This document shows positions 3,780-62,151 of a stretch of DNA of 64,000 bases, one piece after another. Made by a program: the position numbers and the translations under genes. The notes below the pieces were generated by a model that was not told the DNA's origin, ran no database searches, and saw nothing but the letters and a program-made list of their open reading frames with translations. Every line of letters starts with the position of its first letter. Within the stretch, counting starts at the first letter, position 1. The DNA lies in sequence record NC_024125.2; one strand, given 5' to 3'. Source of the DNA: Escherichia phage vB_EcoM_112.

Positions 3780-5307
3780 CTACTGTTATCCATTTACCAT
3801 TAATCTGTACTTCATCATTTTCATTTACGATAATTGTATCGCCATTTAGTTCGAAAGTAAACCACTCGCCATCTTCTTTTTCTTCAAACGCCTTTTCACC
3901 AAGAACTAGACCAGTGATTGCGCAAATATCAAATAGTTCTTTGTTTTTAAGCATATCGGCATATGACATACCCCAGCTATTAAGAACTTTACCGCGCAAT
4001 GGATAACCACCATGAAGTTCTTTATCACGAACATCAATAAGATATCCGATAGCAGAATCACCCTCAGTCAAGAACAATGTAGTATCAGCATCTTTACCAC
4101 AAAGATTCGCTTTAATATGTTTATGAACCTTAGCTTTAGAAGCCTTTTTAGCTGCTTTAGTTTCTGCTGCCTTTTCCGCCGCCAATTTACGAGCTAGTGC
4201 AGCTTCAATAATCGGCATTAAAATTGCTTCATTATTTAGAATAGCGCGTGAAATCTTTTTAGCATCAAGTTGAATATGACTACGAATTTCGCCAAATGGA
4301 GAAGTCAAACGCTCTTTAGTTTGAGAATCAAATCGCATGTTTTTCATATCACGAACAAACATAACGATAGTCAAACATTCTTTAACCCGTGCTTTAGTTA
4401 CATCAATTTTGAACTTACGTTTGATTTGTGGAATAAGGTCTTCACAAATATCATCCATAACACAGTCAATGTGATGGCCACCATTCTTAGTATGAATGTT
4501 ATTCACATAAGTTAATTGACGAAAACCATCCGGTGAACGACCAACTGCAATAGAACAATTTTCTTGTTCTTGAACGATAGCATGCTCATCATATTGGCGT
4601 GCATATTTCTTAAAATTACCCTGAACCTTTTTACCATTAAAGGTAAATTGAATATCAGGATAAACAACAGCAAGTGTCTGGAGACGATCTAGTGTAATGT
4701 CAAGATAAACTTGGGACAGCTCATTAGTTTCAAATGACATAAAATCAGGAATGAAAGTAACGCGAGTTCCTTTCCATTTTCCAGGAATATCTTCCCATGA
4801 TTTATTTTCCATGCCATTTGAACAACGAACTACAATATTATTTTGACCATCACCAGTTTCACCAACAAACATCACAGAAAAAATGTTAGTTAAACTAGAA
4901 CCAACACCGTTCATACCGCCAGTGACGCGTTCTTTATCATCACCGAAGTTACCACCTGCTTTTGGAATAGTCCATGCAGCAACAGGACCAGGAATTTCTT
5001 CACCAGTAGGTGTTTTAACCATAGCCTGTGGAATACCACGACCGTTATCTTCAACTGTTACCTGATTATTTTTAATAGTAACATTAATTTTATTTGCGAA
5101 TTTAAACTTAGTACGAATACCTTCATCTACTGAGTTATCGATAATTTCATCAATAAGCTTAACAAGACCAGGTACATACTGAACACTTTCCCATTTACCA
5201 AACAGAAAGCGCTCATGCATTTCATTAGCAGAAGAGCCAATATACATGCCGCTACGCTTTTTGATATGTTCAATATCGCTCAGAATTTTAATTTCATTCT
5301 TAATCAT
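3757..5307 (-). CDS. 39: DNA topoisomerase II large (ATPase, GyrB-like) subunit gp39, 516 aa
   Basis: 516 aa from ATG at 5305-5307 (tracked start 5310 is GTG); GHKL ATPase motifs (EIIDNSVDE, GLVKLIDE); synteny. Confidence 0.9.
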   Translation of the reverse strand: MIKNEIKILSDIEHIKKRSGMYIGSSANEMHERFLFGKWESVQYVPGLVKLIDEIIDNSVDEGIRTKFKFANKINVTIKNNQVTVEDNGRGIPQAMVKTPTGEEIPGPVAAWTIPKAGGNFGDDKERVTGGMNGVGSSLTNIFSVMFVGETGDGQNNIVVRCSNGMENKSWEDIPGKWKGTRVTFIPDFMSFETNELSQVYLDITLDRLQTLAVVYPDIQFTFNGKKVQGNFKKYARQYDEHAIVQEQENCSIAVGRSPDGFRQLTYVNNIHTKNGGHHIDCVMDDICEDLIPQIKRKFKIDVTKARVKECLTIVMFVRDMKNMRFDSQTKERLTSPFGEIRSHIQLDAKKISRAILNNEAILMPIIEAALARKLAAEKAAETKAAKKASKAKVHKHIKANLCGKDADTTLFLTEGDSAIGYLIDVRDKELHGGYPLRGKVLNSWGMSYADMLKNKELFDICAITGLVLGEKAFEEKEDGEWFTFELNGDTIIVNENDEVQINGKWITVGELRKNL

Positions 5308-6843: not shown

Positions 6844-7113
6844 TTAATTGAACAGTGGAGCGATACGTTTCAGAAGAGTAGCAGCACCTTTGGCGAATTT
6901 TACATCATGAAAAACAGTTTCTTCTTCTGTAACAACTCGAGCTTTAATGTTTTCACAATCCCAATTTTTACGAACAATCTTCAAAAGCTGCAGTAAATCT
7001 TTACATTCAGCAATATCGATAACACATCCACGAGAATCTTCCATTATCGCACGATAACCGTAAGCCATACCATAATCGTTGAAAGATTGCTCGATGATAA
7101 TTAAGTTTTCCAT
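6844..7113 (-). CDS. hypothetical protein, about 89 aa
   Basis: ATG at 7111-7113 preceded by TTGGAGAATAAA leader; tracked start 7125 is a TTG extension. Confidence 0.55.
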   Translation of the reverse strand: MENLIIIEQSFNDYGMAYGYRAIMEDSRGCVIDIAECKDLLQLLKIVRKNWDCENIKARVVTEEETVFHDVKFAKGAATLLKRIAPLFN

Positions 7114-7136
7114 TTTATTCTCCAAGTTGTTTCTGT

Positions 7137-7179
7137 ATCAGTAGTTGATATTGATATAGTACCATAATCAACTACTGAT
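7137..7179 (-). repeat. perfect 13-bp inverted repeat ATCAGTAGTTGAT / ATCAACTACTGAT around a 17-nt loop
   Basis: Arms 7137-7149 and 7167-7179 are exact reverse complements; loop carries a TACTAT -10-like element. Confidence 0.6.
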
Positions 7180-7209
7180 GTATATAGTTTTATGAAAAAA
7201 TTTTAAACT

Positions 7210-7707
7210 TTATGCACAGCGAGCTTTGCTATAGTGTTTAATCCAACTTTCAGGAATGACTTTGTATGTTCCTAAAAATACCGCGTTGTACAGCTTAACA
7301 CCATCTTCTACCCACTGATCGGTAATGTATGCGCACATAGCACGAGTACGGTGTTTTTGAACAACCCCTTCCTCATCTTCAGTAAATTCAAATTCATAAG
7401 GAGCAACGAACTTGATAGCTTGACCAAGTTTCCACTTAAAGTCTACACCTACATGCGAAGTATCAATCGTTTCAATTCCTTTAGCGGGAACAGCTTTCAA
7501 AAACGCAGGCTCAAGAAATTTCCATCGAACATAACCAAACTGGGGCTTAGACATTCCATCTTTAGCAATGATACGTACTTTTACTTCAGAATCTTCATCT
7601 TTAACACCGTGTTTAAGCTGAATGCTTACAACTTCAACCAATTTTCCTGCTGCTTTAGAACGGGATTTATCAGATACACGAGCAATTTCACCGATATTAA
7701 TATTCAT
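7210..7707 (-). CDS. hypothetical protein, 165 aa; paralog of 7786..8319
   Basis: Shares motif TDQWVEDGVKLYN with neighbour (TDQWIEDGVELLN). Confidence 0.6.
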   Translation of the reverse strand: MNINIGEIARVSDKSRSKAAGKLVEVVSIQLKHGVKDEDSEVKVRIIAKDGMSKPQFGYVRWKFLEPAFLKAVPAKGIETIDTSHVGVDFKWKLGQAIKFVAPYEFEFTEDEEGVVQKHRTRAMCAYITDQWVEDGVKLYNAVFLGTYKVIPESWIKHYSKARCA

Positions 7708-12470: not shown

Positions 12471-12500
12471 ACTATAACATTTTTACCTTAACTTGTAAAC
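12471..12500 (-). promoter_or_regulatory. T4-type early promoter (GTTTAC-N18-TATAGT)
   Basis: Plus gtaaac 12495-12500, actata 12471-12476. Confidence 0.5.
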
Positions 12501-12557
12501 AACTTTATGTAAAAATGCTTTAAAAATTTCATGGTATAATGAATCTAAGTCCTTCCA

Positions 12558-26555: not shown

Positions 26556-26792
26556 TCAAATGCAAGTAGTAATTACTCCAGTAGTGCTTATGCAGGTATT
26601 ACCCATTTGCACACCTAAAGATCCATTTGTATTCACATGAAGATTATCATCAATTTTAACTGATATTTTACCATTAGTGTGAATAACGGTGCTAGATTCA
26701 ATCACAGGTTGAGTATCATTTTCAACACTAACAAATGGAACTGCTGCTAATGCAACTAAACAAACTGCTAAGCATCCCATAACAATTTTCAT
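26556..26792 (-). CDS. secreted/membrane small protein, about 78 aa
   Basis: ATG at 26790-26792 after shared leader GGAGAATGAA; signal-peptide-like N-terminus. Confidence 0.55.
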   Translation of the reverse strand: MKIVMGCLAVCLVALAAVPFVSVENDTQPVIESSTVIHTNGKISVKIDDNLHVNTNGSLGVQMGNTCISTTGVITTCI

Positions 26793-26829
26793 TTCATTCT
26801 CCAAATCCGTATCAGTAGTTGATAGTTGT

Positions 26830-26859
26830 ATAGTACCATAGAAGAACAGGGATGTAAAC
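26830..26859 (-). promoter_or_regulatory. T4-type early promoter within a repeated promoter-leader cassette
   Basis: Plus gtaaac 26854-26859, atagta 26830-26835. Confidence 0.55.
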
Positions 26860-26947
26860 AGTTTTGTGAAAAAATTTTTAGGGAATCCAAAGGGTCCAGA
26901 ATCATCTCTTTTTCATAAGTATAGATTTATATTACTTGTATGAAAAA

Positions 26948-26963
26948 GGGACCTGGAGGTCCC
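26948..26963 (-). terminator. terminator-like hairpin after gene 43
   Basis: GGGACC-UCCA-GGUCCC on transcript followed by UUUUUCAU. Confidence 0.6.
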
Positions 26964-26976
26964 TAGATTTATTCTA

Positions 26977-41104: not shown

Positions 41105-41134
41105 ATAATACCACGGTTTGAACTTGTTGTAAAC
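41105..41134 (-). promoter_or_regulatory. T4-type early promoter (GTTTAC-N18-TATTAT)
   Basis: Plus gtaaac 41129-41134, ataata 41105-41110. Confidence 0.5.
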
Positions 41135-41215
41135 AACTTTGTGAAAAATATTTTAGGGAATGATAAGAAAGGAACGATAACTTAGAATGGTAATATACAG
41201 AATGTGAGAAAGAAA

Positions 41216-51980: not shown

Positions 51981-52004
51981 ATTATACCATCCTTGGTATA
52001 AAGC
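51981..52004 (-). promoter_or_regulatory. candidate middle promoter (imperfect MotA box plus TATAAT)
   Basis: Transcript CGCTTTA, 12 nt, TATAAT. Confidence 0.35.
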
Positions 52005-52006
52005 GG

Positions 52007-52534
52007 TTATGCGAGTACCGTCTTTAACCGTTCTTCAAATTTCCGAAGAGTGTTCTGGCGTTCAGCTCTTTGCTTTTTGTAAGTTTCAATACGCTCTGAA
52101 ATGAGATTGTATCGTTCATTTACTGATTCTTTCATAAAATCAGGAATTTCACGAGAAGCTTTAATCTCGTCAAATTTATCAATAACAGCTTGCTCTTCAG
52201 CAATTAAGTTATCATACATCAAAATATCTTTCTTGATGAACTCAATATCTTCTTGAGTTACACGAGATAATTTAGATGCTTTATCCTTTTTGTACTGTTC
52301 GTTAGTATCACGAGACCAGTGTAATGTACGATTTTTATTCGTATTTTTGTAAATTTCTACAATACCAATCTCATCGATAATAACGATCCAATTCCAACGA
52401 GATTTGTAAATTTGTCCTCCATCAACCGTGATTTCACCTCCAATTGAGATGTCATTAAAGAACTTGCTTTGAGCTTCAGATTTAAATTTACCATCATTGT
52501 AGTTTACCAAGTTGAAAATATCTTTAGCATTCAT
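52007..52534 (-). CDS. hypothetical protein, about 175 aa
   Basis: ATG at 52532-52534 with GGAGG RBS; tracked N-terminus is translated promoter/leader. Confidence 0.55.
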   Translation of the reverse strand: MNAKDIFNLVNYNDGKFKSEAQSKFFNDISIGGEITVDGGQIYKSRWNWIVIIDEIGIVEIYKNTNKNRTLHWSRDTNEQYKKDKASKLSRVTQEDIEFIKKDILMYDNLIAEEQAVIDKFDEIKASREIPDFMKESVNERYNLISERIETYKKQRAERQNTLRKFEERLKTVLA

Positions 52535-52908
52535 TTTCTGTTCCTCCGTAGTTGATAGGGTAATAGTACCACGGAAGAACAGTCTTGTAAACAACTAAAA
52601 GAAACTTCTTTCACAATTTTTCCACTGAACCACGCGCTCACTGCTTTCTTAGTCTCAGGAGCGGTGTTATCCATAAACCATTCAAAGGCAGCCTTTTTAT
52701 GATTCTGGAGGGCTTCTCGGGCTTTAATCTGCTCACGGTCTATTAACACTAACATATGAGCCTTTCTTGTCACCAGGGGCTTCTTATGATTTTTTGAATA
52801 CTCCCAATCATTTGTCCATCGCATCGTTGTTGCGAATTGAAGTACAGCTTCCTTAATCTTAGTTTCGTAAATTTCACGAGCCTTTGAGTATAACATCATT
52901 ACCTCCAT
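52531..52908 (-). CDS. hypothetical protein, 125 aa
   Basis: ORF track; 3' end contains the downstream early promoter. Confidence 0.5.
   Translation of the reverse strand: MEVMMLYSKAREIYETKIKEAVLQFATTMRWTNDWEYSKNHKKPLVTRKAHMLVLIDREQIKAREALQNHKKAAFEWFMDNTAPETKKAVSAWFSGKIVKEVSFSCLQDCSSVVLLPYQLRRNRK
52563..52592 (-). promoter_or_regulatory. T4-type early promoter (GTTTAC-N18-TACTAT)
   Basis: Plus gtaaac 52587-52592, atagta 52563-52568. Confidence 0.55.
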
Positions 52909-52997
52909 TTACTAGTTTAATTCTAGTCATCTTTTTGATGGCAGTCCATATAATCTATTTCTGAACTGCCTTTTTGTCATAGAAGGCCTCTTATGAA

Positions 52998-53966
52998 TTA
53001 TTTCAGAAGAGTAACCTCAGCAATTTCTCCCCAACCATTTTTGTCGGTCATAATAAAGTCAGCAAGATAAAGAGCAGTACGCAGTGAAACATTGCGTAAA
53101 CGATTAACATTGACTTTCATCCATGATAATGCTTTATAAGTTTCTTCATCAGAAAGACCACGCTTTTGCATCATGTCGGTTGAAAGAATAACATCTTCAA
53201 CCCTGACCATAATTTCTTCATTAGTGTGAACACCCAAATCTAAATAAACTGAGCGGGAAACTAATGCTTGTAAATGTGGAGCAAGTTTAGTACCACGGTC
53301 TAATTCGCGGTCAATGTCAACGTTTGTGATAAAAACAATCGTTCCTTTAAATTCAAACTCACGCTCAATGCCTTTTTCTTCTAAGTAAGAAGATGCGGTA
53401 CTCCAGCAGACTTTACGGGTCTCTCCAGTGTCCAGAGCAGCTTTCAGAAGATTAAGAATGTCCATATCAGAGAAAACATCCACATCATCAATCAAAAGGA
53501 CAGAATTCTCTTCACGATTATTCCAAAGCTGCTCATAAAGACCAATACCAGAGATTTTACCGTTAATGCTTTTATATTCAATGTATCCATTATCATTTGC
53601 TTTATTTAAAGCTTTATCTAAAGAATACGTTTTACCAATACCTGCTGCACCAGAGATAATTAATGAACGAATGTTTCCGTTAATAATACCATTCGTCATC
53701 ATTCCCATAACATTAAATCTTTTATTAATGCGGGTTTTCATATCTTCATATGATTCTTTAACTTCTTCAACTTTTACACCATCATATGAAATGTCTGATT
53801 TGTAAACCCAAACACCGCGACGTTTACCGTCAATTTCAACAAAAACTTTACCATCTCCTTGTGCATCTACCGGAGCATTATCTGGGAACCATTCGCCTAA
53901 GAGCTCAAAAGTTCCAGAGATTTCTTTACCGAAGTAGATACCCTTATTGATAGTTACAGTTTTCAT
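52998..53966 (-). CDS. P-loop ATPase (AAA-like), about 322 aa
   Basis: Walker A GAAGIGKT, Walker B LLIDDVD; ATG at 53964-53966. Confidence 0.65.
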   Translation of the reverse strand: MKTVTINKGIYFGKEISGTFELLGEWFPDNAPVDAQGDGKVFVEIDGKRRGVWVYKSDISYDGVKVEEVKESYEDMKTRINKRFNVMGMMTNGIINGNIRSLIISGAAGIGKTYSLDKALNKANDNGYIEYKSINGKISGIGLYEQLWNNREENSVLLIDDVDVFSDMDILNLLKAALDTGETRKVCWSTASSYLEEKGIEREFEFKGTIVFITNVDIDRELDRGTKLAPHLQALVSRSVYLDLGVHTNEEIMVRVEDVILSTDMMQKRGLSDEETYKALSWMKVNVNRLRNVSLRTALYLADFIMTDKNGWGEIAEVTLLK

Positions 53967-54003
53967 TTTATTCTCCAAATCTGTATCAGTAGTTGATAGT
54001 TGT

Positions 54004-54033
54004 ATAGTACCATAAAGCTTTATGCTTGTAAAC
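54004..54033 (-). promoter_or_regulatory. T4-type early promoter within a repeated promoter-leader cassette
   Basis: Plus gtaaac 54028-54033, atagta 54004-54009; leader near-identical to the one at 26792-26835. Confidence 0.55.
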
Positions 54034-54063
54034 AACTTTGTGAAAAATTTTTGAAATAAAAAA

Positions 54064-54081
54064 GGGAGCCCGAAGGCTCCC
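54064..54081 (-). terminator. CUUCGG tetraloop hairpin after the nucleotidyltransferase-like ORF
   Basis: GGGAGCC-UUCG-GGCUCCC on transcript. Confidence 0.55.
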
Positions 54082-54083
54082 TA

Positions 54084-55097
54084 TCATTTATAATAACTTC
54101 GGTGGTTTTCAAGATAGACCTTCTCAAGGAAGTCATCCCAGAAACTCATGTCTACTTTTTGCTGCATACCGTTCTTAGAAGCTTCAGTAGATGCTGCTTC
54201 TACTTGATCGACCGCATCTTCCAAAAACTCTTGAACGGTTTTAAATGGATGTTTACCCAACTTCACGTCGAGAATAAATGGAGCATCTTGGAGTGGATAA
54301 ATCAAGTCGCCAGTTTTGTAAATTTCCAATAGTTGAAGTCCACCACGGCAAGCATGGCTCAGAGCTTTCCAGTCAATACCTTCGTTGGCTTCAGCCTTAC
54401 GAGCGCGTTCACCGTATTCAGCATCTAATTTGTTCAGTGACTGCTTAAGCTCAATAAGAGAAAGAGTTGTCTGATATTTACGACCCAACACTGTGTAAAA
54501 CGTCTGTGGGCCTGTTTTCTCATGATTATGGAACACCCATTCACAGAATTCGTTTTCTGGAAGACGATGCTTAATATCTTCAACTTTAGTACGACGCTGC
54601 TTAATAGAACCATCTTCTTGGTAATCAACCCATTGCTCAGGGATTTGATTAACTACTTTCAATACATCACGTAATGCAGCCAAACGAGAACCCTTGACAC
54701 CGTATTTAGAAGCTTGCTTGCGGACATATCCTAAATATGATTTCATGTTAGTCGTATAAAAACGAGAACGGTTGTCTTGGATAAACTTCCACACATCAGG
54801 CAAATCAGATTTAACCACTAGTTCAGGTGGAGTGTGAAGCATATCTAATGCTACGGTTTCACCATCTGCTGCTAATTTAAAGAAATACTTAAGACTGTAT
54901 AGTTCATGGTCAATATCATCTTTAGTGTTTTTAGATGATGTGTTGTTGGTATTTTTACTCATATGCTCTTTGACGTTTCCGATAAGAATATCGCGAGCAG
55001 GAGGAACAAAGATTTCTTTAAAATCTAAGTCAGATTCTGGGGTAGAAGTTCCATACAGATGACTACCAAAATAGCTTTTCATTACTGTTTTCATCAT
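54084..55097 (-). CDS. nucleotidyltransferase-fold protein, 337 aa
   Basis: N-terminal GSHLYGTSTPESDLD resembles the GS...DxD motif of Pol-beta-type NTases. Confidence 0.55.
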   Translation of the reverse strand: MMKTVMKSYFGSHLYGTSTPESDLDFKEIFVPPARDILIGNVKEHMSKNTNNTSSKNTKDDIDHELYSLKYFFKLAADGETVALDMLHTPPELVVKSDLPDVWKFIQDNRSRFYTTNMKSYLGYVRKQASKYGVKGSRLAALRDVLKVVNQIPEQWVDYQEDGSIKQRRTKVEDIKHRLPENEFCEWVFHNHEKTGPQTFYTVLGRKYQTTLSLIELKQSLNKLDAEYGERARKAEANEGIDWKALSHACRGGLQLLEIYKTGDLIYPLQDAPFILDVKLGKHPFKTVQEFLEDAVDQVEAASTEASKNGMQQKVDMSFWDDFLEKVYLENHRSYYK

Positions 55098-55555
55098 TCA
55101 GCCTTATATTCAATAACAGGACATACTTTAGCTTTACGCGCTTTTAAAAATTCGACGATAATCGATTTCTTTGGTTGAATAGGAGGTAAACCTTTATACG
55201 CCCTATCAATATTTTCTAGGTGTAAAGCATAATCCTTTTTCCATTTATAATCTTTATATTTTTCACGCAAATGTGCAGGAATAACAAATGAACCGATAAT
55301 AAGTAAAACAACCAAAAGCGCAAGTATAAATGCCGATGGAAGAAGAGTCCATAAACTACCGAAAATAAGCCAACGTTGTAGGCTTTCTGCACAAATAATT
55401 GTTAACCCTACGAGTATAGCACACCCAAAAATAGAAACGAAAAATGTAGGAATGACAATAGACCAAAAATATGCGCATAGTGTCTTAGGTCGTTGCCATT
55501 CATCGTTAAACAATTTGAATAATTTATAGTGCCAAGAGTTTTCATTAATAATCAT
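55094..55555 (-). CDS. membrane protein, 153 aa
   Basis: Multiple hydrophobic segments. Confidence 0.55.
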   Translation of the reverse strand: MIINENSWHYKLFKLFNDEWQRPKTLCAYFWSIVIPTFFVSIFGCAILVGLTIICAESLQRWLIFGSLWTLLPSAFILALLVVLLIIGSFVIPAHLREKYKDYKWKKDYALHLENIDRAYKGLPPIQPKKSIIVEFLKARKAKVCPVIEYKAE

Positions 55556-55557
55556 AA

Positions 55558-56079
55558 TTATCCTTTCATTGAAGGCGTAACGGTTGTTAAATACTTAATC
55601 ATAGCTTCAGCTTCTGATTTTGATAATGAAATTTCTCCATTGTTTTGACGAATAGAAATAAAATCCGGATGACGGTCACCACCAGCTTTTAAAACACACA
55701 TATAAGTATCAACTTCGCCTTCAATATTTGAAATGATTGAAGCAGTTCCACATGAATGCGGTTTTTGATAAATCAATACAGCTTTTCTTCCACCGTTTGA
55801 CTGCTCATAGGCTTTTAATACATCAAGCAAATCAGTTCTTTTATCAATAGCTAAAATGTTGTTTTCATCTTCAATGTTAAATCCTTCGGATACTTCATAA
55901 AGCGTTACCCATAAATCACCAATGTCAATAACAGCATTTACTTTTCCACGGCTTTTAAGAGTATGACAAATTTTCTTGATTTCGTCATAACTCATTTTAA
56001 TAATATCATCTCCTTGACTAAGGAAGATGTCATTTTTAAATTCAACACGAATTAAACCACTTCCACTTGAAATAAACAT
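55558..56079 (-). CDS. hypothetical protein, 173 aa; paralog of 56086..56640
   Basis: Shared C-terminal motif (KYLTTVTPSM vs TYLDSVIPTM). Confidence 0.55.
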   Translation of the reverse strand: MFISSGSGLIRVEFKNDIFLSQGDDIIKMSYDEIKKICHTLKSRGKVNAVIDIGDLWVTLYEVSEGFNIEDENNILAIDKRTDLLDVLKAYEQSNGGRKAVLIYQKPHSCGTASIISNIEGEVDTYMCVLKAGGDRHPDFISIRQNNGEISLSKSEAEAMIKYLTTVTPSMKG

Positions 56080-61632: not shown

Positions 61633-62094
61633 TCATTTAGTTTTAATTACTGCTTTAGAAGCCTTTCCTGGTAAACGGCGACTGTTGATAATTGCCATCC
61701 TACATTGAAGTGATGGGTCTTTGAACTTCTCATTAGGTTTACAAACTGTAAATCCAAGCCAAAGATTTCCATCTGTAATTTCTAAACGTCCAGGACGATA
61801 TTCAACCCCATCAATAAAATCCTCGTCAATGTCAGGACGCGGAGGCATACTCAGGAATTCATTAACTTCTAAAACATGGTCTTTTATTTTATGGAATAAT
61901 TCAAAAACATATGTCTCATCAATCTCCCGTTGAATTGCACGATCAAGAAGATGTTGAGAATATTTTAGATGAAACGATGAGACTCCTGCTGCTTTTGATG
62001 CCTCACGAATCTCATTGTTAATTTGACGAAACTCCGACTCAAAATGACGACGAAGCTTATTTCGACGGATAAAAACTTCTGTATTGATAGTCAT
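61633..62094 (-). CDS. regB: RegB sequence-specific endoribonuclease, 153 aa
   Basis: Length and synteny; early promoter upstream. Confidence 0.8.
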   Translation of the reverse strand: MTINTEVFIRRNKLRRHFESEFRQINNEIREASKAAGVSSFHLKYSQHLLDRAIQREIDETYVFELFHKIKDHVLEVNEFLSMPPRPDIDEDFIDGVEYRPGRLEITDGNLWLGFTVCKPNEKFKDPSLQCRMAIINSRRLPGKASKAVIKTK

Positions 62095-62121: not shown

Positions 62122-62151
62122 ATTATACCACAGTCAAGAGGAAAAGTAAAC
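62122..62151 (-). promoter_or_regulatory. T4-type early promoter (GTTTAC-N18-TATAAT) upstream of regB
   Basis: Plus gtaaac 62146-62151, attata 62122-62127. Confidence 0.6.

Follow-up and report, generated by a model that had tools for sequence, protein, structure and literature searches.

Repeated early promoter-leader cassettes upstream of unrelated genes in a T4-like phage

What is the sequence that lies immediately upstream of nrdC.10 in Escherichia phage vB_EcoM_112, and why does nearly the same sequence stand in front of other, unrelated genes? The window analysed here is a stretch of 64,000 nt from record NC_024125.2. Judged by its sequence, it is a Tequatrovirus (T4/T2/RB27-like) early region. 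Its identity to Tequatroviruses such as T2 and PST is 97%, and the cassette before nrdC.10 matches that of RB27 at 100%. The ends of the span in question, 53966–54033, coincide exactly with the A of the nrdC.10 ATG and the G of GTTTACA. It is a feature of the minus strand, a point left unstated when it was first described. Very probably the repeats belong to a single subfamily within the early regulatory cassettes of T4-type phages that have been published as PeSL ('promoter-early stem-loop') elements.

Extent and distribution of the repeat

The first-pass annotation reported a nearly identical sequence before the genes starting at 26792 and 53966, and diverged copies before those starting at 7113 and 52534. 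Written as a 48-nt pattern with two R positions, the repeat has exactly two matches in the window, at 26790–26837 and 53964–54011 on the minus strand, and these differ at 2 of 48 positions, both as had been stated. No match is expected by chance and none arose in 100 dinucleotide-preserving shuffles. A repeat search of the window against itself also recovered the diverged copies before the ATGs at 7113 and 52534, in a four-member group whose 97-nt unit lies on the minus strand. Taking 26782–26878 as reference, the copy at 53956–54052 matches at 85%, that at 7108–7204 at 66% and that at 52515–52611 at 61%. The repeat reaches farther upstream than had been described, through the UP element, and its block TTTTTCACAAARYTGTTTACA is found also at 26853–26873, 41128–41148 and 12494–12514.

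The likeness exceeds that general among early promoters, since the leader pairs 53966/26792 (similarity 0.84) and 53966/7113 (0.83) are the top two of the 120 pairs formed by 16 early-promoter cassettes in the window (median 0.54, 95th percentile 0.69). Duplication of whole genes, instead of a shared cassette, was ruled out because the downstream proteins are unrelated: no mutual homology was found among those of the copies in the window. Three of these four proteins matched no Pfam family.

A recent duplication confined to this phage lineage, copying one promoter region to a second locus, would suit the two best copies, with their differences at only 2 of 48 positions. Against it, cassettes occupy orthologous positions in T4, T6, T2, fPS-2 and hundreds more records, and a Carettavirus also has one. 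The distribution over 552 records and 4198 places, at 7–10 per genome, refutes such a duplication, which we regard as scarcely credible. The IMG/VR loci were retrieved by an 18-mer that spans the −10 to +12, so their conservation over that stretch is partly by construction. In the Carettavirus and in ST2 the downstream gene e.8 accompanies the cassette; these matches are therefore taken as a wider distribution, and transfer of the cassette alone was rejected.

Anatomy of the cassette, its leader and its putative RegB site

Read 5' to 3' on the minus strand, the cassette usually comprises the terminator hairpin of the upstream gene, a UP element, the −35 GTTTACA, a spacer, the −10 TACTAT, a leader and the SD/ATG. 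The shared DNA had been said to include the −10, the leader, the RBS and the ATG, and this is borne out: TTTACA-17-TACTAT with a TG extension is followed by GGAG and then by the annotated ATG. This promoter core is found at 54032–54004, 26858–26830 and 52591–52563. The 17-nt spacer varies apart from its terminal TGG, which is present in all four copies, and the 30 nt upstream of the −35 are 70–87% A+T across the four. GGAG lies 6–7 nt 5' of the ATG in every copy; the SD/start block of the cassette is GGAGAATAAAATG, its 3' end having the form GGAG(A/G)A.. plus AUG. The predicted leaders start ~7 nt past the −10, are 22–36 nt long and have a core, ATCAACTACTGATAC.

At the nrdC.10 locus (minus strand, as are all the features that follow) an intrinsic terminator hairpin, AGGGAGCCTTCGGGCTCCCT plus a T-run, ends nrdC.11 at 54063..54082, with 8 pairs, 6 of them GC, and a T-rich tail. 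The T4 record U76612 has a 'terminator' annotated at its orthologue, and the hairpin is the stem-loop part of a PeSL-type cassette. The UP element TTTTTATTTCAAAAATTTTTCACAAAGTTG (54033..54062, 83% A+T) adjoins the core early promoter (54004..54032), in which the −35 TTTACA is at 54032–54027, the spacer at 54026–54010 and the −10 TACTAT at 54009–54004. The predicted 31-nt leader ATCAACTACTGATACAGATTTGGAGAATAAA occupies 53967..53997, +1 being placed at 53997 because it usually comes 7 nt past the −10, and its core is at 53983–53997. The SD and spacer GGAGAATAAAA (53966..53976) are identical to the published optimal RegB/S1 target. The 322-aa nrdC.10 CDS (52998..53966) has its true start at ATG 53966–53964.

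The second, near-identical cassette (26790..26888) has its UP element at 26888–26859, −35 at 26858–26853, −10 at 26835–26830, leader at 26823–26793, GGAGAATGAAA at 26802–26792 and ATG at 26792–26790, and would drive a 78-aa signal-peptide-like ORF (26556..26792). A terminator hairpin after gene 43 (26947..26964) lies ~90 nt upstream of it, at a site where fPS-2 also annotates a terminator. The diverged cassette of nrdC.8 (52532..52621; −35 at 52591–52586, −10 at 52568–52563, 22-nt leader ATCAACTACGGAGGAACAGAAA, ATG at 52534–52532) has a UP region overlapping the 3' end of nrdC.9, and no stem-loop was found at it. A possible A5 frameshift in nrdC.9 falls within 52608–52629. The other diverged cassette, between motB and cef (7111..7214; −10 at 7161–7156, 36-nt leader, GGAGAATAAAA at 7123–7113, ATG at 7113–7111), has a degenerate −35, TATACA at 7184–7179, and was missed by the promoter scan of the window. 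Across its −10 lies a 13-nt perfect inverted repeat (7179–7167 / 7149–7137) forming a 13-bp hairpin of −20.2 kcal/mol (z −4.5) without a T-run.

These promoters are known from T4 itself. T4 early promoters are built as UP/−35/TGn/−10 with GTTTAC at −36 to −31 (PMC2988021, PMC1524935), and the copies here share this architecture at orthologous sites. Upstream of nrdC.10, GenBank record U76612 has −35/−10 signals, 'early promoter 54.4' and the terminator, and the terminator and ATG match those of the window. T4 records also annotate −35/−10 before nrdC.8 and before msp1 (= e.8), and in fPS-2 a 'predicted early promoter' stands before imm.1. The copies do not really differ from the T4 promoters; their −10, TACTAT, departs from the consensus TATAAT in a way characteristic of the subfamily. 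A literature search found no mapped TSS for the cassette genes and no genome-wide T4 TSS map, and the main text of a T4 omics paper held none that was gene-specific.

In PeSL elements, as defined in the literature, an AT-rich region, −35, −10, SD and ATG are combined with a stem-loop, and the elements are associated with indels (Arbiol et al. 2010, PMC2839356; Comeau et al. 2014, PMC4122927). The likeness extends to the AT-rich region, the sigma-70-like −35/−10 and the SD and ATG at the 3' end, at some copies to a stem-loop terminator nearby, and to the many repeats before small genes of unknown function, with indels and replacements between close relatives. The consensus published for the PST/T4 pair, TTTACW-N17-TAYWAT (Comeau et al. 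2014, PMC4122927), holds throughout every copy but that at 7113, whose −35 departs from it; PST itself ranks with the nearest relatives of the window. There are differences too. The present copies make up a closer-knit subfamily, united further by a ~21-nt leader core and the exact RegB/S1 consensus. Of the four, that at 53966 is the one whose stem-loop adjoins its promoter; the stem-loop is ~90 nt off at 26792, absent at 52534 and not a terminator at 7113. With an adjoining terminator at one copy only, the 'SL' part of the definition applies unevenly. Excision of mini-circles between tandem PeSL cassettes is published for RB49/phi1 only.

The block from the SD to the ATG also matches a nuclease target, which the first-pass annotation had missed. 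According to Durand et al. (2006, PMC1702504), the RegB site has the consensus GGAGAAUAAAA / GGAGRAYARAA in single-stranded RNA, that is, GGA with G at position 4 and then a 7-nt A-rich, C-free stretch. The optimal 11-nt RegB/S1 cleavage site GGAGAAUAAAA is the SD-to-ATG block of the 53966 and 7113 copies. The strict consensus has only two matches in the 64 kb (53976–53966 and 7123–7113; 0.37 expected), both of them in cassette copies. At position 8, where A is among the most conserved, the 26792 copy (GGAGAATGAAA) has G and so departs from the consensus; the 52534 copy (GGAGGAACAGA) has C there. Predicted folds of the leaders are weak (−0.6 to −3.8 kcal/mol; z −0.14 to +0.96 against shuffled sequence), and the RegB site is predicted to lie in single-stranded RNA. 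The window encodes RegB itself at 61633..62094 (minus strand; PF10715 REGB_T4, 230.8 bits, E 8e-69), with its own early promoter at 62150–62122. Identity at 53966 and 7113, position over the SD, predicted single-strandedness and the presence of regB all resemble RegB/S1 targets in T4 early mRNAs. We infer cleavage at the cassette sites, the exception being nrdC.8, whose SD in T4 is reported as 'moderately cleaved' by RegB in vivo (PMC1702504).

One part of the cassette fits this account poorly. The leader core, ACAACTATCAAC[TAC]TGATAC, extends over ~21 nt from about −6 to +15, lies outside the known promoter, SD and RegB/S1 requirements, and counts against the PeSL reading. It is near-identical before at least nine unrelated genes and is kept through swaps of the spacer and of the downstream gene, on which grounds it could be a cis-element. 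Function, and not shared descent, would then keep it identical, and it could act as an S1-dependent translational enhancer, an initial-transcribed-sequence signal or a binding site for a phage or host factor. It occurs at three predicted 5' ends and in one inverted copy in the window, where 0.22 are expected, and, rich in C and A and unstructured, it has ACA motifs like those noted for S1-binding enhancers. Other strong early promoters in the window nevertheless have different leaders, and the core tolerates a 3-nt change in ACT copy number and is truncated after ACAACTATCAA in the phiD1 and F1 alleles. Nor is there a conserved structure: the nrdC.10 leader folds no better than shuffled sequence (z −0.14), and a riboswitch or structured cis-RNA was rejected. 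No Rfam family reached its gathering score, the best match (L20_leader, 27 against 58.7 bits) being so far under it that these matches are put down to chance. We consider function alone an unlikely reason for the identity. That the core is an independent, hitherto undescribed cis-element of T4 immediate-early mRNAs, perhaps a promoter-escape signal or a site recognised by an early phage factor, is decidedly unlikely; our literature search found no published function for it. Were it true, the inverted copy in the motB-cef promoter could act as an antisense or attenuating partner.

Start codons and false N-termini

The first-pass annotation also attributed similar N-termini among the ORFs of the window to translation of the shared DNA from upstream TTG codons. 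The effect is reproduced in the ORF track, in the TTG-started frames 52998–54035 (N-terminus MFTSIKLYGTIQLSTT), 52007–52594 (MFTRLFFRGTITLSTT) and 26556–26804 (MENEM), and 6844–7125 (MENKM) is an additional case, all on the minus strand. Could the long ORFs be real, with nrdC.10, nrdC.8 and the small ORFs beginning at TTG and the shared DNA encoding a common N-terminal peptide? The frames are indeed open from the TTG codons, and the 3-nt ACT indel preserves frame. The 'extension', however, covers the −35/−10 of an annotated promoter and has no SD at its start, while the ATG has GGAG 7 nt upstream, and the leader variants are separated by 1-nt indels. In the phiD1 and F1 alleles the DNA upstream of the nrdC.10 ATG is replaced by unrelated sequence with in-frame stops, and the protein is unchanged from the ATG on. 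Annotations of T4, T2/SV76 and T6 place the starts at the ATGs that follow GGAG. These stops, the overlap with the promoter and the annotated ATGs effectively refute the long ORFs, to which we attach practically no credence; the TTG-initiated 'extensions' are ORF-caller artefacts, translated from promoter DNA.

Cassettes as probable sites of gene exchange

That the cassettes might be portable modules spread by recombination, as had been proposed, agrees with the comparison of related genomes. At least nine unrelated genes, mostly small ORFs, lie downstream of them, with up to 6 copies in one genome, and breakpoints of indels and replacements fall inside the cassette. At the nrdC.11|nrdC.10 junction there are at least four alleles: one with no insert, one in phiD1 with a 66-aa ORF, one in F1 with two ORFs, and one in T2/SV76 with a ModA-like gene between two terminator+UP+GTTTAC units. 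Their breakpoints lie after the −35 or after ACAACTATCAA. The cassette that follows gene 43 drives imm.1 directly in T4, T6 and RB14, and in the window the 78-aa ORF is inserted, with its indel junction at ATGAAAAT. The ORFs behind both the 26792 and the 7113 copies vary in presence among relatives; in the window the motB-cef ORF has its full length, T6 keeps a remnant of it, and ES26, which has a cef fusion, lacks it through a clean deletion. ES26 also has a patchwork nrdC.10 promoter, with a spacer identical to that of the cassette at another locus. Mosig and colleagues are said to have described, in 1998, spontaneous T4 deletions whose ends lie in repeated promoter/RBS sequences of the dda-56 region. 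These resemble the ATGAAAAT junction and the ES26 cef fusion in having short early-promoter/RBS repeats as endpoints, and differ in belonging to another region of the genome.

Selection might do all of this work. Strong constraint on each segment could keep the copies alike with no causal role in gene shuffling: the UP/−35, TGG-TACTAT and GGAGAAUAAAA blocks have documented functions, and the segment that differs between copies is the unconstrained −35/−10 spacer. The leaders of the imm.1 and nrdC.10 loci showed no concerted evolution in eight genomes, a test that is either negative or uninformative. Gene conversion deduced from the 'TAC' indel and the A/G site was also dropped, all four combinations of states occurring across loci and genomes; the indel, in which ACT stands either once or twice, is slippage-prone, and the ES26 spacer is used as evidence in its place. 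Constraint alone, however, sits badly with breakpoints inside the cassette blocks (the four nrdC.11|nrdC.10 alleles, the 78-aa ORF indel, the ES26 cef fusion), with the ES26 patchwork and its borrowed spacer, with a 21-nt leader core near-identical without a known functional requirement, and with the PeSL-mediated excision circles shown experimentally in RB49/phi1. We find it very unlikely. The role of recombination is shown comparatively, by the genome comparisons.

On the PeSL reading, and drawing on sequence, orthology and published T4 work, the cassette would function as follows. Host sigma-70 RNA polymerase would fire the promoters right after infection, as the consensus and the T4 annotation suggest. 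The unstructured leader and the GGAG SD would give efficient initiation at the ATG. Later, RegB with ribosomal protein S1 would cut the SD-spacer block and shut off translation of the early mRNA, since GGAGAAUAAAA is the optimal RegB/S1 site. The conserved blocks (UP/−35, −10/leader core, SD/ATG) would serve as portable patches of homology because each is repeated many times per genome, and recombination between them would insert, delete or replace the intervening genes and also shuffle segments of the cassette.

The repeat is thus real but ordinary, and the idea of a portable module has already been published in the form of PeSL cassettes; the cassettes open no new question. Their practical value lies in annotation. 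Gene callers that accept TTG or GTG starts would give many T4-type early genes false N-termini made of promoter DNA. Once GTTTACA-N17-TACTAT ... GGAGAATAAAATG is recognised, start codons can be fixed, early expression and RegB sensitivity predicted, and those junctions marked at which relatives differ in gene content. The four alleles at a single junction, together with the patchwork promoter, give a further clear example of modular shuffling of the PeSL type among T-even phages.

A tight subfamily of early-promoter cassettes

The window is Tequatrovirus early region, and its genes are encoded on the minus strand. Nucleotides 52000-56000 share 97.4% identity with T2 and ~97% with PST and others; across the nrdC.10 cassette, identity with RB27 is 100%. 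The first-pass annotation had reported a promoter-leader sequence recurring almost unchanged before the genes starting at 26792 and 53966, with diverged copies before 7113 and 52534, and this observation is confirmed. The 48-nt string proposed for it (two R positions) has exactly two matches, 26790-26837 and 53964-54011, both on the minus strand, and none in any shuffled sequence. The self-comparison suggested as a check, a repeat search of the window, yields a 97-nt unit in four copies; those at 53956-54052, 7108-7204 and 52515-52611, all on the minus strand, score 85%, 66% and 61%, respectively, against the reference at 26782-26878.

The proteins downstream of the four copies are unrelated to one another. 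They are nrdC.10 (ATG 53966; CDS 52998-53966), nrdC.8 (ATG 52534), a 78-aa signal-peptide-like ORF (26556-26792, ATG 26792) between gene 43 and imm.1, and an 89-aa ORF (ATG 7113) between motB and cef, all on the minus strand. A Pfam search placed the 78-aa ORF in no family. For nrdC.10, it gave only sub-threshold matches to P-loop/STAND NTPases (nSTAND3, AAA_16 and AAA_14; 19-22 bits against cut-offs of 27-34), in keeping with the weak matches to AAA that had been reported before.

Sixteen early-promoter cassettes are recognisable on the minus strand, many with a looser leader theme, ..CTACTGAGGAG..ATG. Of the 120 leader pairs that these form, no other is as similar as 53966/26792 and 53966/7113; because this similarity exceeds the 16-cassette background, the four copies constitute a tight subfamily within a broader family.

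The span 53966-54033 runs exactly from the A of an ATG through the G of GTTTACA, and the -10, leader, RBS and ATG that the repeat was said to include can all be located in this copy. In the minus-strand direction, a terminator hairpin (54082-54063; AGGGAGCCTTCGGGCTCCCT plus a T-run) is followed by an A/T-rich UP element (54062-54033), the -35 TTTACA (54032-54027), a 17-nt spacer with TGG at its end (54026-54010), the -10 TACTAT (54009-54004), a predicted 31-nt leader (53997-53967), the SD/spacer GGAGAATAAAA (53976-53966) and the ATG (53966-53964). The 26792 copy is laid out likewise; its spacer differs, its SD block is GGAGAATGAAA, and its terminator is found ~90 nt upstream (26964-26947). At 52534 the leader, ATCAACTACGGAGGAACAGAAA, is shorter, and the UP region and the end of nrdC.9 overlap; at 7113 the leader is longer and the -35 degenerate (TATACA). 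A consensus promoter scan called the 53966, 26792 and 52534 copies, each with a TG extension, and did not call the 7113 copy.

T4 early promoters are described as 'über' promoters built of UP/-35/TGn/-10, in which positions -36 to -31 read GTTTAC (PMC2988021, PMC1524935), and every sequence feature of that class is present here. At the orthologous sites, the T4 GenBank records mark a terminator and the -35/-10 of 'early promoter 54.4' ahead of nrdC.10; they also carry -35/-10 signals for nrdC.8 and for msp1 (= e.8), and fPS-2 has a 'predicted early promoter' before imm.1.

The modules of the cassette combine freely. The UP/-35 block TTTTTCACAAARYTGTTTACA of the 26792 and 53966 copies recurs on the minus strand in two further early promoters with unrelated leaders (41128-41148 and 12494-12514), and the leader core ATCAACTACTGATAC is found only at three predicted 5' ends and in one inverted copy. 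An upstream motif, ATTCCCTAAAA, is common to the promoters at 41133 and 26858 and to T4 e.8. The motB-cef cassette also contains a perfect 13-nt inverted repeat across the -10 (7137-7179, minus strand), one arm of which (ATCAGTAGTTGAT) falls within the promoter spacer and the other (ATCAACTACTGAT) opens the leader; in read-through RNA this repeat would fold at -20.2 kcal/mol (z -4.5), and there is no T-run. T6 has the same arrangement.

The annotation had also considered the similar N-termini in the ORF track, read from upstream TTG codons, to be spurious. These N-termini were reproduced. In the phiD1 and F1 alleles, different DNA with in-frame stops precedes the nrdC.10 ATG, and their protein is the same from MKTVTINK on; in T4, T2/SV76 and T6, the genes are annotated as starting at the ATGs. 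What is read from the TTG codons as an 'extension' is therefore promoter DNA in translation. A separate frame difference affects nrdC.9 (ORF 52531-52908): at 52608-52629 (minus strand) the A6 run of T4, SV76 and three IMG/VR relatives is an A5 run in the window. The resulting frameshift falls in the final codons and lengthens the ORF by ~25 codons, through the nrdC.8 promoter cassette to the nrdC.8 start, and could be a genuine mutation or a homopolymer sequencing error.

The SD-to-ATG block and RegB

The most informative segment of the cassette is the SD-to-ATG block. RegB, acting with S1, targets an 11-nt single-stranded site with the optimum GGAGAAUAAAA and the degenerate form GGAGRAYARAA, and nrdC.8 is moderately cleaved in vivo (Durand et al. 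2006, PMC1702504). The 53966 and 7113 copies carry GGAGAATAAAA exactly, and the strict RegB/S1 consensus has two matches in the 64 kb (0.37 expected), only at these copies. On this basis both are predicted RegB/S1 sites, and the 26792 and 52534 copies approximate ones. At 26792-26802 (minus strand), a G at position 8 of the site (GGAGAATGAAATG) introduces an ATG, out of frame and 5 nt ahead of the true start, and the resulting two-codon mini-ORF, ATGAAATGA, overlaps the true ATG. The regB gene lies in the window (61633-62094, minus strand; PF10715, 230.8 bits) with an early promoter of its own (62150-62122, minus strand) and a leader ending in GAGGAGAACAACATG.

The leader RNAs are unstructured on folding (z -0.14 to +0.96) and match no Rfam family at its gathering score. 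In the mechanism that we propose, the promoter would set off transcription in one immediate burst, an open leader bearing GGAG would allow translation, and RegB, by putative cleavage at the same GGAG block, would later switch off the cassette mRNAs.

Distribution and breakpoints among relatives

A scan of viral contigs with a -10/leader 18-mer, together with loci already fetched, places the cassette before at least nine unrelated genes (nrdC.10, nrdC.8, imm.1, the 78-aa ORF, e.8 and ORFs starting MKFKFY, MSKVTY, MITAEQ and MKKIIK), with a maximum of six copies in a single genome. Because the 18-mer fixes -10 to +12, the IMG/VR loci are independent evidence in their flanks only, and these (UP/-35 block, TGATAC..TTGGAGAATAAAATG) are likewise conserved. 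In a phage collection, the 109-nt cassette matched 552 records at 4198 places, 7-10 per genome. Two of the relatives' records have a taxonomy that looks wrong for a T4-like genome of 168-171 kb: L005 (OM982647.1, phage ST2), filed under Guernseyvirinae/Kagunavirus, and L045 (KY608967.1, HP3), filed under Rosemountvirus.

At the nrdC.11|nrdC.10 junction, the window and its relatives together show at least four alleles: no insert (window, T4 and RB27), a 66-aa ORF (phiD1, L038 272-472), two ORFs of 49 and 87 aa (F1, L039 269-678) and a 161-aa 'ModA'-annotated gene (T2/SV76, L001 3591-4076). None of these three cargo sets is found in the window. The ModA-like gene has a terminator and TTTTATTTCAAAAATTTTTCACAAA..GTTTAC on either side. 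The upstream junction falls right after the -35 in T2 and right after ACAACTATCAA in phiD1 and F1, and nrdC.10 keeps GGAGAATAAAATG in all alleles.

After gene 43, the cassette drives imm.1 directly in T6 and the 78-aa ORF in the window, with the junction at ATGAAAAT. When the region of this ORF was searched, 315 of 534 records covered at least 80% of the query; T4, T6 (L003) and RB14 lack ~240 bp and with it the ORF, whose presence varies among Tequatroviruses. The window has the motB-cef ORF at full length; T6, LF73P1, ES21 and HP3 keep a remnant of it. ES26 (L044, minus strand) has lost it through a clean deletion, and there the cassette is joined directly to cef, with the SD block GGAGAATGTAATG.

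The nrdC.10 promoter of ES26 retains the nrdC.11 terminator, UP element and usual leader, but its -35/-10 spacer is identical to the one in a cassette at a different locus, before an unrelated gene of 211 aa. This combination points to patchwise exchange, with crossovers within conserved blocks. A comparison of the two main loci for concerted evolution tells neither for nor against it: all combinations of states occur, and the 3-nt 'TAC' difference comes down to whether a slippage-prone ACT is present once or twice. The range of genes served and the breakpoints at nrdC.11|nrdC.10, 43|imm.1, motB|cef and in ES26 support the earlier interpretation of portable modules possibly spread by recombination.

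Relation to PeSL cassettes

Conserved promoter/RBS regions in T4, and deletions between them, were reportedly described by Liebig and Rüger in 1989 and by Mosig and colleagues in 1998. The promoter-early stem-loop (PeSL) cassettes of T4-type phages are repeated units of an AT-rich region, -35, -10, stem-loop and 3' SD with ATG; they are concentrated in hyperplastic regions and found at indel boundaries, and their PST/T4 consensus is TTTACW-N17-TAYWAT (Arbiol et al. 2010, PMC2839356; Comeau et al. 2014, PMC4122927). PST is among the closest relatives of the window. The copies described here belong to this class, although the stem-loop is unevenly represented: 53966 has it next to the promoter, 26792 at a distance and 52534 not at all. 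In the 7113 copy it takes the shape of a hairpin across the -10, a subclass likewise described in Arbiol et al. 2010 (PMC2839356).

The repeated cassettes are thus the PeSL concept, and the phenomenon is already known. Novelty could hide only in the ~21-nt leader core, and we think it improbable that it does. The window adds detail to the known picture: this leader core, common to the subfamily and without an assigned function; the patchwork promoter of ES26; the four-allele series at nrdC.11|nrdC.10; and an SD-to-ATG block that equals the optimal RegB/S1 site.
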